In this document: positions 7,547 through 36,360 of the stretch, piece after piece
Position numbering within the stretch: position 1 is the stretch's first letter
Layout of the letters: each line of letters starts with the position of its first letter
Origin: Longimicrobiales bacterium
GTDB taxonomy: Bacteria; Gemmatimonadota; Gemmatimonadetes; Longimicrobiales; Gaopeijiaceae
Direction: 5' to 3'
Assembly (NCBI GenBank): GCA_965219445.1
Contig: CBDCNQ010000002.1
Coordinates: 384,001 to 448,000, forward strand
Length of the DNA: 64,000 nt
Translations under genes and position numbers: made by a program
The notes under the pieces: model-generated
Databases searched by the model: none
What the model was told of the DNA's origin: nothing
What the model saw: the letters and a program-made list of their open reading frames with translations, nothing else

Positions 7547-8593
7547 ATGCGCTTCTACACCGGCCAGCATCGATACTACTGTGGCATCGACCTTCACGCT
7601 CGCACGCTCTACCTCTGTATCCTGGACTGCCAGGGCAAGATACGACTACACAAGAGGCTACGCTGTGAGCGCGAGGCACTGCTTCGCGCCCTCGAGCCGT
7701 ACCGTTCAGATCTCGTCGTGGGCAGCGAGTGCATCTTCTGCTGGTACTGGCTCGCCGATCTCTGTGCTCGCGAGCAGATCCCCTTCGTGCTCGGCCATGC
7801 GCTCTACATGAAGGCGATCCATGGGGCCAAGGCGAAGAACGACCACATCGACTCCCACAAGACGGCGGTGCTGCTGCGCGGGGGTGCCTTTCCGGTGGCC
7901 TACGTCTATCCCCCGCAGATGCGAGCCACGCGCGATGTGCTCCGGCGCCGACTCTACTTCGTACGCAAGCGCGGCGAACTCCTCGCCCACGTCCGTAACA
8001 CCTTTCATCAGTACAACCTGCCTCGGCCCTCCGGTCAGCTCCTCTATAAGAAGAACCGCGAGGGACTGGCCCAGGCATTCGACGATCGCATGATCCAGAG
8101 GACCATCGAGGCGGATCTCGCACTCGCGGATCGCTTCGACCCCGTGATCCGAGAACTCGAGCGCACGATCGAAGAAGAAGCCCGCGTCCACGACCACGAC
8201 ACGCTGCAGCGGCTGCGAACCATCCCCGGCATTGGCCGCATCCTGGCCCTCACGCTGCTCTATGAGATCCACGACATCGCTCGCTTCAGCACGGTGCAGC
8301 GCTTCAGCTCCTACTGTCGACTCGCCAAGCCCGAGCACCGCAGTGCAGGCAAGCGAGTCGGCAGCGGAGGAGCCAAGATCGGCAACGCACACCTCAAGTG
8401 GGCGTTCAGTGAGGCGGCCGTCCTCTTCCTTCGCGACAACGTCCGCGGCCAGGCCCATCTCAAGAGGCTCGCGCGCCGCCACGGCAAGGGCAAGGCGCTC
8501 AGCATCCTTGCGGCTCGCATCGGACGCGCCACCTACTTCATGCTCAAGAACCGGGAGGCATTCGACACCGAACGCTTCTATACACGCACCTGA
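7547..8593 (+). CDS. IS110-family DEDD recombinase/transposase, intact (348 aa)
   Basis: GIDLH, KNDHIDS, LRTIPGIG, FSSYCRL, HRSAGK..GSGGAKIGNAHLKWAF. Confidence 0.93.
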   Translation: MRFYTGQHRYYCGIDLHARTLYLCILDCQGKIRLHKRLRCEREALLRALEPYRSDLVVGSECIFCWYWLADLCAREQIPFVLGHALYMKAIHGAKAKNDHIDSHKTAVLLRGGAFPVAYVYPPQMRATRDVLRRRLYFVRKRGELLAHVRNTFHQYNLPRPSGQLLYKKNREGLAQAFDDRMIQRTIEADLALADRFDPVIRELERTIEEEARVHDHDTLQRLRTIPGIGRILALTLLYEIHDIARFSTVQRFSSYCRLAKPEHRSAGKRVGSGGAKIGNAHLKWAFSEAAVLFLRDNVRGQAHLKRLARRHGKGKALSILAARIGRATYFMLKNREAFDTERFYTRT

Positions 8594-9850: not shown

Positions 9851-10724
9851 ATACTCATGCAGGCCCCCTCCTGGACCTCTCAGAGAGAGGACGGAATGAT
9901 CAGAGCGCGACGCTCGATCCATCCAACCCAGGAGGGGAACCATGCGCTTCTACACCGGCCAGCATCGATACTACTGTGGCATCGACCTTCACGCTCGCAC
10001 GCTCTACCTCTGTATCCTGGACTGCCAGGGCAAGATACGACTACACAAGAGGCTACGCTGTGAGCGCGAGGCACTGCTTCGCGCCCTCGAGCCGTACCGT
10101 TCAGATCTCGTCGTGGGCAGCGAGTGCATCTTCTGCTGGTACTGGCTCGCCGATCTCTGTGCTCGCGAGCAGATCCCCTTCGTGCTCGGCCATGCGCTCT
10201 ACATGAAGGCGATCCATGGGGCCAAGGCGAAGAACGACCACATCGACTCCCACAAGACGGCGGTGCTGCTGCGCGGGGGTGCCTTTCCGGTGGCCTACGT
10301 CTATCCCCCGCAGATGCGAGCCACGCGCGATGTGCTCCGGCGCCGACTCTACTTCGTACGCAAGCGCGGCGAACTCCTCGCCCACGTCCGTAACACCTTT
10401 CATCAGTACAACCTGCCTCGGCCCTCCGGTCAGCTCCTCTATAAGAAGAACCGCGAGGGACTGGCCCAGGCATTCGACGATCGCATGATCCAGAGGACCA
10501 TCGAGGCGGATCTCGCACTCGCGGATCGCTTCGACCCCGTGATCCGAGAACTCGAGCGCACGATCGAAGAAGAAGCCCGCGTCCACGACCACGACACGCT
10601 GCAGCGGCTGCGAACCATCCCCGGCATTGGCCGCATCCTGGCCCTCACGCTGCTCTATGAGATCCACGACATCGCTCGCTTCAGCACGGTGCAGCGCTTC
10701 AGCTCCTACTGTCGACTCGCCAAG
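9851..10724 (+). mobile_element. IS1111 copy 4, truncated (transposase 9942-10724; aagccc remnant at 12325-12330)
   Basis: Identical to copy 3 up to cgccaag, then IS3 element B. Confidence 0.88.
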
Positions 10725-10764
10725 CGGAACCTGTCAACAGCGATGAGACACGGGGAGTCATAGA

Positions 10765-32436: not shown

Positions 32437-32862
32437 TCAATCCAGGCGACTCCCCCTATCCGCCGTCAGGGGTTCACTCCACAACGGTGGCTTGTTGCGT
32501 GCTTCCCACAGGTCGCCCCGCCGCTTCAGGTGCTCGGCTTCTTGGGTTTGGGTGAGGTTAGCCTGTTGTAGGTTGTCGTCTATCTCCCACAACTGGCGGT
32601 CGGTGTCATTGAGGTGGAGATAGATGGCCGGAATTTCCTCCCAGCCGAGCCGTTGGGCTGCACGTAGGCGGTGATATCCCGCCACGAGGACCACACCACC
32701 CTCATCGCCACCACATACGGAGATGGGCTGTTGTAGCCCGATGGCATCCATTGATGCAGCTAGCGCTACGACCCTGTCTTCGTCCAGCGGGCGTAGCCGG
32801 GTCAGCACCATCACGTCATCCACGTACACCTTGGAGAGTATGACCTCTCGCTCGGCCTCCAC
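32437..32862 (-). CDS. ParB N-terminal-domain protein, probably truncated
   Basis: LAASMDAIGLQQPISV...LVAGYHRLRAAQRLGWEEIPA...EIDDNL. Confidence 0.7.
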   Translation of the reverse strand: MEAEREVILSKVYVDDVMVLTRLRPLDEDRVVALAASMDAIGLQQPISVCGGDEGGVVLVAGYHRLRAAQRLGWEEIPAIYLHLNDTDRQLWEIDDNLQQANLTQTQEAEHLKRRGDLWEARNKPPLWSEPLTADRGSRLD

Positions 32863-33041
32863 CTTATCCTCGAAGGCTTCGAGCTAGGATCAAAGGCATC
32901 ATAGGGGCATGGCGACGGCTACCGGTACCGATCAGCAGCTAAGCAGCCCGAAGACGAAGAGGCGTTCTCCTCCGGGAACGGGTGCGCGTTCATCATTGTT
33001 CGCGCAAGGAAGCAACCCACCTATCCAAGAGGAGAACGCCG

Positions 33042-34097
33042 ATGGAGAGATATATCGGACTCGACGCACACGCGTCGAGCTGCACGCTGGGGATTGTAGG
33101 CCCCAGCGGCAAGCGCTTGGGCTCGCAGGTGGTGGAAACGAACGCGCGGGCGCTGATCGAGGTGCTGCGAGGGATTCCGAGGAACCGGCACTTGTGCCTG
33201 GAAGAAGGGACGCTGTCGGGGTGGCTGTACGAGGTGCTGGAGCCGCACGTGGAGGAGCTAACGGTGGCGGGGGTCGGCAAGAGCCGGGGCCCGAAGACCG
33301 ACAAGCTGGACGCGTTTGCCCTGGCGGAGAAGCTGCGGATCGGATCACTGGAGACGAGGGTCTACAAGAACCGGGGCCAGTTCAGGCGGCTGGGGGAACG
33401 GGCGAAGAGCTACGACTTCCTGGTCGGCGACACGGTGCGGGTGAAGAACCGGCTCAAGAGCGTGCTGCGCTCGAGAGGAGTGGCCTACGGCGCGGGGCGC
33501 TCGGTCTACTTGAAGCGCGACCGGGAGGAGTGGTTGGCCAAGCTGCCGGAAGCGAGCAGGACGACGGCCGGGTTGCTGTACGAGGAGCACGACGCACTCG
33601 TGGCATTGAGGGCGAAGGCCGAGAAGGCGTTGCTGGCGGAAGCACGCAAGCATCGAGAGTGGCATGTGCTGAAGACGTGCCCGGGTCTGGGTCCGATCCG
33701 GACGGCGGAGCTCCTGCCGGTGGTGGTGACGCCGTACCGGTTCCAGAGCCGGAGCAGATTCTGGGCGTACTGCGGACTGGGCGTGGTGATGCGGAGCTCG
33801 TCGGACTGGGTGCGGGGTCCGGGTGGGCGGTGGGTAAGGGAACCGGTACAGCAGACGCGGGGGCTGAATCGGAACTTCAACCACACGCTGAAGCGTGTGT
33901 TCAAGGGCGCAGCGACGACGGTGATCGGTCGGGCCGAAAACGAACCCTTGTACCGCCACTACGAGCGACTCCTGGAGGGGGGCACGAAGCCGAATCTGGC
34001 GAAGCTGACGATCGCGCGTCAGCTCGCCTCGATCGTGCTAGCGGTGTGGCGCACGGGCGAAGCGTACGACCCCAAGAGACTGGAAGCGACGGAGTAA
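33042..34097 (+). CDS. IS110-family recombinase
   Basis: YIGLDAH, KTDKLDA, LKTCPGLG, FWAYCGLG. Confidence 0.92.
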   Translation: MERYIGLDAHASSCTLGIVGPSGKRLGSQVVETNARALIEVLRGIPRNRHLCLEEGTLSGWLYEVLEPHVEELTVAGVGKSRGPKTDKLDAFALAEKLRIGSLETRVYKNRGQFRRLGERAKSYDFLVGDTVRVKNRLKSVLRSRGVAYGAGRSVYLKRDREEWLAKLPEASRTTAGLLYEEHDALVALRAKAEKALLAEARKHREWHVLKTCPGLGPIRTAELLPVVVTPYRFQSRSRFWAYCGLGVVMRSSSDWVRGPGGRWVREPVQQTRGLNRNFNHTLKRVFKGAATTVIGRAENEPLYRHYERLLEGGTKPNLAKLTIARQLASIVLAVWRTGEAYDPKRLEATE

Positions 34098-34460
34098 ACC
34101 GGCCTGGGATCGGCGAGCGTGGGGTCGAAAGCGGTCACAACATGGGGTCCGACGAAACGGAAGCGAACCGGTTACAGGGGACAGCATCCATACACACCGT
34201 GGGCCGGGGCAGAGAGCCCAAGCCCCCACTCAAAGGCTATGCACCCCTGGAAGAGCCGAACGAAGCGATGGGCCACAGAGTCCCAGATAGAAGGATGGTT
34301 CCCGCTCCAGAGCGGAGAACGCGACGGCTGTGAACGTCTTCCGGACTGCGATGCGGACCCTGCGAGCGCACCCCTCCCCACCCTGAGTCGTCGACCGGGC
34401 AATCCAAACCATGCGGACGCCGACGGTCAAAAAATGAGCCGACGGCGCGTGGGGAAGGTG
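34098..34460 (+). ncRNA. putative bridge/seek RNA (one target loop, one donor loop)
   Basis: tacacacc (34191-34198) and tcaaagg (34230-34236) match the IS256 IR target; atagaagg (34287-34294) matches its own right end; boundaries approximate. Confidence 0.7.
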
Positions 34461-34583
34461 CGTCTTGACCGCCAGCCCCATAGAAGGGTGTGTAAAAAAA
34501 GAGGCGACGTACCTTTCCGCTAGGTAGTAAGAAGTTAACCAGCGAATCCCGGGTGAGCGCCCGGGGGAAAGGAACGATGCCTC

Positions 34584-35828
34584 GTGAGGAAGAATATGGT
34601 GGGACCCGAGAGTGAGTCCAGCACGCCGACGTGGGAGTGCTTGGAAGCGCTGGTTCGTGAGAAGGCCCAGGAGATGGTCCAGCGGATTCTGGAGGAGGAA
34701 GTGACGGAGTTGCTCGGCCGGGAGAAGTCGGAGCGGAAGACGGTCGTAGACCCGGCGCCAGGCTACCGCAACGGCTACGGCAAGGCTCGGCGGCTGGCGA
34801 TGAGCTCGGGCACGATCATGCTCCGACGGCCCCGGGTTCGAGGCATTGAGGAGCGGTTCGAGAGTCGGGTGTTGCCGTTGTTCGCACGACGGACGAAGGA
34901 GGTGGGTGCTCTGCTTCCGGAGCTGTATCTGCACGGGCTGGCGGAGGGAGACTTCGAGCTGGCGATGCGGGGCCTGCTGGGCGAGGGGGCCCCGTTGTCG
35001 AAGTCTTCGATTTGGCGGCTGCGGGCGGGATGGACAAGGAAATTCGAGGAATGGTCGAAGCGCTCGCTGGCCGACCGTGAGGTCGTCTACGTCTGGGCGG
35101 ACGGGATCTACGTGAAGGCGGGGCTCGAGCGGGACAAGGCAGCGCTGCTGGTGGTTCTCGGTGCGATGCGAGATGGTACGAAGGAGGTGTTGGCCCTGAG
35201 ATCGGGCTACCGAGAGTCGGTCGAGTCCTGGTCCGAGGTGTTGCGGGATCTGAAGGCACGCGGCATCGAGGCGCCCCGGCTTTTGATGGCGGACGGCAAC
35301 GCGGCGATCTGGGGCGCAGTACGGCAGGTATGGCCTGAGGCGGGCGAGCAACGGTGCTGGAACCACAAGATGAGGAACGTGCTGGACCGGCTGCCTCAGC
35401 GGGAGCAGAGCGAGGCGAAGGACCTTCTCAGGACCGTGGTCTACGCACCGAGGCGGTCCGAGGCGCTGAAGGCCCGTGAGGCGTTCGCCAGGCGCTACAG
35501 ACCGTGGTATCCGAAGGCGGTGGATGTACTCGAGGACGACTGGGAGCGGATGGTGGCGTTCTACGACTTCCCCGAGGACCACTGGAAGCATCTACGCACG
35601 ACGAACGTGGTCGAGAGCCCCTTTGCCGCAGTACGGCTCAGGACAACGGCGGCGAAGCGCTTCAAGCGGGTCGAGAGCGCTACGGCGCTGATCTGGAAGC
35701 TGCTCTTGGTGGCGGAGAAGCGCTTCAGAAGGCTCGACGCTCCTCACCTCCTCAAGGACGTATTTGAAGGAAGAAAGTTCGAAGACGGAAAGCCCGTCTC
35801 AACCCAACAGCGGAAAAACGCCGCCTGA
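34584..35828 (+). CDS. IS256-family transposase
   Basis: YRNGY, YVWADGIY, ES.ESW..VL.DLKARG, QRCWNHK.RN, LRTTNVVES. Confidence 0.92.
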   Translation: MRKNMVGPESESSTPTWECLEALVREKAQEMVQRILEEEVTELLGREKSERKTVVDPAPGYRNGYGKARRLAMSSGTIMLRRPRVRGIEERFESRVLPLFARRTKEVGALLPELYLHGLAEGDFELAMRGLLGEGAPLSKSSIWRLRAGWTRKFEEWSKRSLADREVVYVWADGIYVKAGLERDKAALLVVLGAMRDGTKEVLALRSGYRESVESWSEVLRDLKARGIEAPRLLMADGNAAIWGAVRQVWPEAGEQRCWNHKMRNVLDRLPQREQSEAKDLLRTVVYAPRRSEALKAREAFARRYRPWYPKAVDVLEDDWERMVAFYDFPEDHWKHLRTTNVVESPFAAVRLRTTAAKRFKRVESATALIWKLLLVAEKRFRRLDAPHLLKDVFEGRKFEDGKPVSTQQRKNAA

Positions 35829-35851
35829 AACATTTACACACCTATTGACCC

Positions 35852-36360
35852 AACCTCCACTGTTTGTCGCGGCCTGCTTCCTCGCCACATGCGAGGGCGA
35901 CGTCGGACCTACCGGACCAGCGGGGGCAGCGGGGCCAGCGGGGCCGACCGGGGACCCGGGAATTGAAAACTTCACCGCGGACCTGAACGAGGCGAATGTG
36001 ATGGTGCCTACCGGGAGCACCGCAACCGGCACCGCGAGCTTCTCCGTCGTCGGGCCAACTCTTCTGTACAGCATCGATGTCACGGGCCTCGCCGACGTGA
36101 CGGTGGTCCATATTCACGGTCCCGCCGCCGTGGGTGTCAATGCGGGCGTCATTCAGGACATCTGTAATGCCGGCGATGCGCCGCCGTGCAACACCACCAC
36201 GCCGCTTACCGGGGTCCTCGTGGCGGGCGCGGCCGCGCGCTCGAAGATCCCGTTCGATTCGCTGGTGGTTTTGATGCAGAACGGGAACGCCTACGTCAAC
36301 GTCCACACGACCGCAAACCCCGGAGGCGACATCCGAGGGCAGATCGCCACGGTTCCGTAA
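35852..36360 (+). pseudogene. collagen-like repeat plus CHRD-domain protein, N-terminus cut by IS256
   Basis: GPTGPAGAAGPAGPTGDPG; HIHGPAA.G.NAGV; AYVNVHTTANPGGDIRGQI. Confidence 0.75.

Follow-up and report, generated by a model that had tools for sequence, protein, structure and literature searches.

Insertion of IS110-family elements into the terminal inverted repeats (IRs) of transposons is already known from IS4321 and IS5075, as described in the portions of PMC8269217 used here. Elements of this type have in common with the one reported below a fixed insertion point inside the terminal IR of another mobile element and a 3' non-coding region, but differ from it in that here the host is an IS256-family insertion sequence invaded in its left IR only, the sub-terminal repeats of the invader are short and bulged, and all intact targets of the source genome (G000) are filled while the free ones are altered. 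Precedent in the family also exists for circular forms, for a promoter created at the circle junction, and for RNA-dependent strand exchange (portions of PMC11208160 and PMC11187229). On the side of the host, the copy-out paste-in elements ISCth4 and IS256 share with ours the 8-9 bp target duplications and the subterminal TGTAAA, and ISCth4 has the same junction geometry, with a -35 in the right IR, a -10 in the left IR, 17 bp between them and a 6-bp junction; unlike in ISCth4, as far as the sections of PMC7780238 used here describe it, the left IR of the host is here split by IS110 in 23 of 28 copies. Our literature search, which left ISfinder, TnPedia, subscription journals and supplements outside, gave no paper that treats IS256 ends as an IS110 target or that deals with escape or hyperparasitism. 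Taken as a whole, our analysis makes it quite probable that an active IS110 bridge-RNA element reads the IS256 left IR, and that IS256 multiplied first and had its intact ends filled later.

The window analyzed here is a stretch of 64,000 nucleotides (G000:C2:384001-448000), and all feature coordinates are window positions. An earlier note, made from the sequence alone, had described an IS110-family element as interrupting the left IR of one of the IS256 family, and this arrangement is confirmed, with some adjustment of the boundaries. The IS256 element spans 32881-35857 and not 32887-35851, its real ends lying 6 bp further out on each side, because target duplications of 8-9 bp flank these ends genome-wide. 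The span originally given to the IS110 element (32897-34487) does leave an identical empty site; in relatives' junctions, however, the crossover falls right after an AG, which is therefore the core, and the true element is 32896-34486. The GG core implied by the original register is ruled out, as junctions in genomes G141, G103, and G092 diverge right after AG; in the junction comparison, the base directly following AG differs in all five G141 copies. Partial duplications in G000 and G103 have the right end joined to internal AG sites. Removal of the IS110 element rebuilds the left IR, as had been claimed, and the rebuilt repeat matches the right IR at 20 of 25 positions, the 16/19 reported previously being the inner part alone.

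Reading along the plus strand, the outer part of the IS256 left IR (32881..32895) contains the tip, a -10-like TAGGAT (32885-32890), the left target TCAA (32890-32893), and the AG core (32894-32895). The IS110-family element follows (32896..34486, plus strand, its right end including one copy of the AG core), and carries a -10-like CATCAT (32897..32902, plus strand), which lies 17 bp from the -35-like TTGACC of the right end (34465..34470, plus strand) in the circular form only, and a gene for a DEDD recombinase of 351 aa (33042..34097, plus strand) that scores over the cut-off for PF01548 and PF02371. Its non-coding sequence amounts to 389 bp downstream of the recombinase gene versus 146 bp upstream. 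On the same strand, the downstream part holds the predicted target-binding loop of a bridge/seek RNA (34175..34249), a right-target guide (34191..34198) complementary to top strand GGTGTGTA, a left-target guide (34228..34236), of which 7 nt match the IS256 site and 9 nt the sole off-target site, and a left-donor guide (34287..34294) matching the IS110 element's own right end. The inner part of the left IR, with the right target GGTGTGTA (34487..34496, plus strand) and the subterminal TGTAAA (34491-34496, plus strand), is now located 1591 bp from the tip. It is followed by the intact ORF of the IS256-family transposase (34584..35828, plus strand; NF033543 at 295 bits against a cut-off of 150, and PF00872) and by the intact right IR (35833..35857, minus strand), which bears a -35-like TTGACC at 35845-35850 on the plus strand. 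With a Mutator-type DDE transposase, terminal IRs containing TGTAAA (a conserved IS256-family motif in the parts of PMC7780238 used here), and target duplications of 8-9 bp, the host belongs to the IS256 family. A different IS110-family element is also present in the window as one full and one truncated copy (7547-8593 and 9942-10763), lies among IS3-like elements, and has several more genomic copies.

Assignment of the invader to the IS110 family in the broad sense is based on the presence of both a DEDD RuvC domain and a C-terminal serine domain, although the NF033542 score of the recombinase (112.8) is below the cut-off of 140. Residues D8, E54, D87, and D90 are invariant, and S252/S253 nearly so, among 30 homologues. 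An alignment-based structure model (pLDDT 88.6) matches the IS621 recombinase (E 3.7e-13) and also that of ISCro4; the single-sequence model was unusable (pLDDT 41), and a phmmer search against PDB gave no match whereas a profile search did. The element, furthermore, generates no target duplication beyond the short core, is found in a single orientation at a specific site, and contains a predicted RNA whose target and donor guides vary in step with the flanks and the element ends. Compared with the IS621 and ISCro4 recombinases (PDB 8wt6, 8wt9, 9t56; portions of PMC11208160 and PMC13626964), fold and DEDD/serine layout are alike at 18-19% identity, and target and donor loops and a 2-bp core are common to both; our RNA, however, sits in the right end with the guide order reversed, the core is AG instead of CT, and the target is an IS end instead of REP. 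With the IS1111-type seekRNA elements ISEc11, ISKpn4, and ISPa11, as presented in the parts of PMC11187229 used here, the element shares a long non-coding region downstream of the gene, a guide order in which the top-strand match (34191) precedes the bottom-strand match (34230), the junction promoter geometry, and natural reprogramming between relatives. Unlike them, it does not have perfect or near-perfect sub-terminal IRs of 11-13 bp, its own sub-terminal repeats consisting of about 10 matching bases with two 1-nt bulges and a longest perfect run of 5 bp; its C-terminal motif reads GLGVVMRSSSD versus GL-P----S(t)G; and identical guides occur here in two separate clades. The element thus works like an IS1111 element, yet is not filed as one. 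Five G000 copies (e.g. C2:522578) have in common a 1-bp deletion close to the end of the recombinase gene, by which the C-terminus is changed after residue 345. A 40% homologue in G005 (L006-L030) is present in 15 copies with an AC core and matching guides, clustered in repeats resembling integron attC sites.

In G000, BLAST returned 25 IS110 left ends, one of which (C2:661602) was dropped as a 57-bp relic of a related element; this relic carries a GGATAG-type flank, common among IS110 homologues. Of the remaining 24 copies, 23 share one insertion point in an IS256 left IR, while the 24th (C2:336726) is outside IS256, in a site that matches the left guide 9/9 and whose empty form was not found in the five genomes searched. 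Among 28 IS256 left ends, 23 are invaded, none is intact and empty, and five are uninvaded, all five being altered within the guide-matched 14 bp (one base gained, one lost, and three substitutions). A truncated sixth tip (C1:205750), outside the count of the left-end scan, breaks off inside the right target, and no exact intact target is left in G000. The right IR had been expected to mismatch the guide and to escape invasion, and in fact all 29 right IRs found by the scan are intact and uninvaded. Such immunity is limited to our IS110 element, as in a 94% identical sister, which carries another left guide, the left junction falls within a right IR. The two patterns that the earlier note had named as speaking against its reading were both absent: IS110 copies do not lie in unrelated flanks, and the left end of empty IS256 copies in relatives is the one predicted. 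No IS256 copy that had moved with only a right-end piece of IS110 as a false tip was seen in G000, and three unmatched right junctions in G090, which might have been false tips, proved to be full elements on variant left ends. Tandem IS110 3' parts with the right end joined to an internal AG site were noted at G000:C5:1612737 and at L317 (G103:C11:426800-431500), where G103 has three copies of the RNA region, which suggests one-ended, guide-poor reactions. A 1.9-kb group II intron (Rfam D1-D4) occupies one of these same left IRs (L095, G000:C4:1169764-1171666), 4 bp past the IS110 element, making three nested elements. The intron was rejected as a second IR hunter, since only one of its 13 copies lies in an IR; several others follow T-rich or stem-loop flanks.

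The guide motifs are present as the earlier note had described them (TACACACC at 34191, TCAAAGG at 34230, and ATAGAAGG at 34287). The last one does match the element's own right end, and its core letters track the element end in homologues, while no right-donor guide could be clearly identified in the IS110 non-coding region. The two target guides do lie in a stem (34175-34249), on opposite sides of its internal loop; when the 373-nt non-coding region was shuffled 100,000 times by mononucleotide, they co-occurred in only 13 of the shuffled sequences. Compensatory changes were found in nine of 17 predicted pairs of this stem across 36 aligned homologues; the RNA region of the window alone folds no better than shuffles (z -0.79), and pair counting on three sequences revealed no covariation. 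The relation between guides and flanks was evaluated on 82 distinct guide/flank rows from loci L096-L292, after dropping loci without a parsable RNA or end. Left guides matched their own flank at 3.36 of 4 positions versus 1.76 upon permutation (14 distinct guides), and right guides at 6.44 of 8 versus 4.2 (34 distinct guides), and none of 20,000 permutations reached the observed match on either side, the match being the best of three offsets for observed and permuted rows alike, and related rows not being independent. The register of the right guide varies by up to 2 nt between homologues. From this covariation, it is the guides that appear to decide the target of the IS110 element. One could argue that the target is instead set by protein-protein or protein-DNA recognition, for example by an IR-bound IS256 transposase recruiting the recombinase, with the guide match being incidental, as the insertion point falls between the two TIR parts contacted by the ISCth4 transposase (portions of PMC7780238). 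Such recognition, however, would not account for the covariation of guides and flanks, for the match of the off-target copy outside IS256 to the guide, or for recombinases that are 79-83% identical and use other guides and other flanks, and we regard it as very improbable. The proposal of an RNA-guided IS110 element aimed at IS256 left ends is thus supported.

Guides also seem to have been retargeted during the evolution of these elements. The L229 element, at 68% identity, has both guides identical to ours and occupies the same point of an IS256 element 73% identical to ours, yet its RNA scaffold is closer to that of its own clade (identity 0.86-0.89) than to ours (0.75). A tree with all six IS256-guided rows as one clade was rejected (p-AU 3.5e-50; 24 rows, quick tree), with the caveat that the IS256-guided group was named after an earlier tree had been seen. 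These sequence relationships point to the same two guides having been reached by separate retargeting in the 68% clade, perhaps by copying from the target. L227 combines the same guides as ours with a different left flank; the 94% sister, which lies in G092, differs in its left guide and is rearranged on its right side; and in G090 a variant left guide occurs in three copies whose left ends are variant too, guide and end pairing with one mismatch or one bulge.

Based on the family precedent, we propose that the IS110 element would circularize, and that joining of its ends would create a TTGACC-17-CATCAT promoter, from which recombinase and RNA would then be made. A sigma70 promoter scan of the integrated form returned 0 sites, and the G005 homologue has the same 17-bp junction promoter geometry. 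The RNA runs contained small shares of the query sequence. The RNA would pair with TCAA-AG (bottom strand), with GGTGTGTA (top strand), and with the IS110 element's own end; strand exchange would take place directly after the AG core, and IS110 variants would in this manner occupy, one copy after another, all left ends whose target is intact, so that the left ends staying free would be those with an altered target. Excision is weaker than insertion according to the portions of PMC13626964 used here, and other members copy out without regenerating the target (portions of PMC11187229 and 10.1101/2025.10.25.684509), both of which fit accumulation to saturation. For the host, each insertion places 1.6 kb between the IR tip and the subterminal TGTAAA and cuts the -10 of the predicted IS256 junction promoter (joined ends would give TTGACC-17-TAGGAT with a 6-bp junction) off from the transposase gene, hence the invaded IS256 copies are probably crippled. 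We consider it likely that IS110 insertion immobilizes the host IS256, and the haplotype pattern described below favors this possibility. Immobilization may nonetheless be partial, given that ISCth4 junctions retaining only bp 1-14 of the left TIR, as well as junctions in which bp 1-14 were replaced, still integrate in vitro (in the experiments covered by the portions of PMC7780238 used here).

As for the order of events, one IS256 haplotype is found in 15 copies, in contrast to 21 IS110 haplotypes in 22 full copies; 12 invaded copies of one IS256 haplotype each contain a different IS110 haplotype, and unlike IS256 bodies share one IS110 haplotype. Three sites, in addition, are empty in one genome and filled in another with the same flank (empty in G006 and filled in G007; empty in G163 and filled in G103; empty as a core variant in G007 and filled in G000). 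Because of the uniformity of the IS256 haplotype and of these three sites, IS256 probably spread first and was then invaded copy by copy. A history in which one IS256 copy or a few of them received the IS110 element, and in which the IS256 transposase later mobilized the resulting 3-kb composite in one piece, acting on the outer 15 bp of the left IR and on the intact right IR, has some points in its favor: target duplications surround whole composites (though this is expected under both readings), the 14-bp left TIR is sufficient for ISCth4 junction integration in vitro (portions of PMC7780238), composites C3:162174 and C5:1629066 differ by one base, and recombination among copies, which could produce IS110 mosaics after the spread of a composite, is frequent. 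We nevertheless find this history improbable in light of the 12 IS110 haplotypes over one IS256 haplotype, of the IS110 haplotype shared by unlike IS256 bodies, and of the empty/filled pairs with a common flank, and favor invasion after spread.

Evidence of such recombination comes from the flanks. The right flank that pairs best with a given IS256 left end is that of a different copy in 12 of 28 cases, sometimes on another contig, which indicates either heavy genome shuffling via repeats or misassembly. The window composite has no matching target duplication of its own; its flanks pair with those of a copy in opposite orientation outside the window (G000:C2:464839-467815), the left one (32872..32880) 8/9 with the right flank at G000:C2:464839 and the right one (35858..35866) 9/9 with the left flank at G000:C2:467815. 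Joining the swapped flanks in silico restores the ribosome site and the start of a CHRD gene (35858-36360), and these flank sequences point to an inversion of approximately 45 kb, or to a misassembly. Synteny with G006 at the CHRD gene is broken by other elements, and this comparison bears on the inversion only as far as the gene start. The IS256 insertions cut this CHRD-domain lipoprotein-like gene in its signal region, and IS256 also lies at the start of a ParB-like ORF (32437-32862); through the apparent inversion, the upstream parts of both have come to lie approximately 45 kb away.

The five altered left ends of G000 deserve separate consideration. In three of them, the IS256 body agrees at every base with invaded ones for about 1350 bp, with the alteration no more than 3 bp from the crossover and the body otherwise unchanged; two altered ends carry the G of the IS110 element's own right end, and two change length. 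The G-bearing ends would fit imprecise excision or failed insertion, and at least some of the alterations look like footprints of such reactions. Excision as their source is, however, weighed against by the copy-out behavior of other members, which leaves the target unregenerated. Ordinary polymorphism or point mutation, with the targeting still RNA-guided but the recombinase writing nothing and no selection operating, has to be considered as well, since AAAAGG and AAATGG variants are present in genomes without any invaded junction, and since the two remaining G000 alterations each consist of one substitution and belong to IS256 bodies that have diverged. Against this are the position of three alterations near the crossover in otherwise unchanged bodies, the donor-end G in two and the length change in two, the absence of such an indel from the uninvaded ends listed for the other 22 genomes, and the unchanged equivalent stretch in 29 of 29 right IRs; we thus hold polymorphism to be unlikely, while granting it real weight. 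Far less probable, in our view, is that faulty assembly or polishing of a multi-copy repeat produced the altered ends and the swapped flanks, even though the five-contig assembly contains more than 20 near-identical 3-kb repeats and two altered ends resemble hybrids of empty and invaded sequence. At C4:199262, in fact, contigs of runs X1 and X2 that are anchored in the unique flank agree fully with the assembly across the altered base, reaching 28 letters past the alteration, which is under the 31-letter bar, whereas in run X3 the flank continues without IS256. We acknowledge that this contig check covers four of 21 listed runs and one of five altered ends, and that one run may be the assembly's source.

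Counts of invaded, intact, and altered left ends in a census of 23 chosen, and therefore not random, genomes show how far the saturation seen in G000 (23/0/5) extends. No intact end is left in G141 (5/0/10) and G103 (2/0/1), one is left in each of G007 (6/1/3) and G090 (4/1/2), and more are found in G136 (6/5/1) and G161 (1/45/at least 1). Saturation, then, is not general, as G161 keeps 45 intact targets beside one invader with intact guides that shows five amino-acid differences, and that may, judging from the stretch on which it lies, be a recent arrival. This 7-kb stretch (L312, in G161:C13), which holds the invaded IS256 end and an internal tandem repeat, is 99.6% identical to G000:C2:602534-609591 although the two genomes belong to different genera, an identity that indicates recent horizontal transfer. 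All 10 uninvaded left ends of G141 have a changed core, one core variant occurring eight times; five of its seven parsed full bodies clearly show their own target duplication, and the closest one is a single base from an invaded body. The AG core is kept at 23 of 23 invaded left junctions examined. The eight copies of this variant, on bodies one base from invaded ones, raise the possibility of an arms race, in which the IS110 element would act as a genome-wide brake, footprints would immunize the IR, immune IS256 copies would multiply, and guides would retarget in reply, as could be read from the variant guide on variant ends in G090, the right-IR sister in G092, and the same guides in the 68% clade. 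Such a scenario is tentative and, on balance, doubtful, because core variants were also found in genomes without any invader (37 copies in G163, two in G142, and one in G184), which weighs against escape.

The nested elements described here are an unusually complete example of a known family habit, to which saturation, altered survivors, and repeated retargeting are added. They offer a natural and countable system to ask whether an RNA-guided insertion sequence can stop another one from spreading, and whether bridge recombinases leave errors in their targets, a question that bears on their use as scarless editors. They also provide a system to study how guides get reprogrammed in nature, and a compact AG-core recombinase that comes with more than 20 genomic copies and with natural guide-target pairs.
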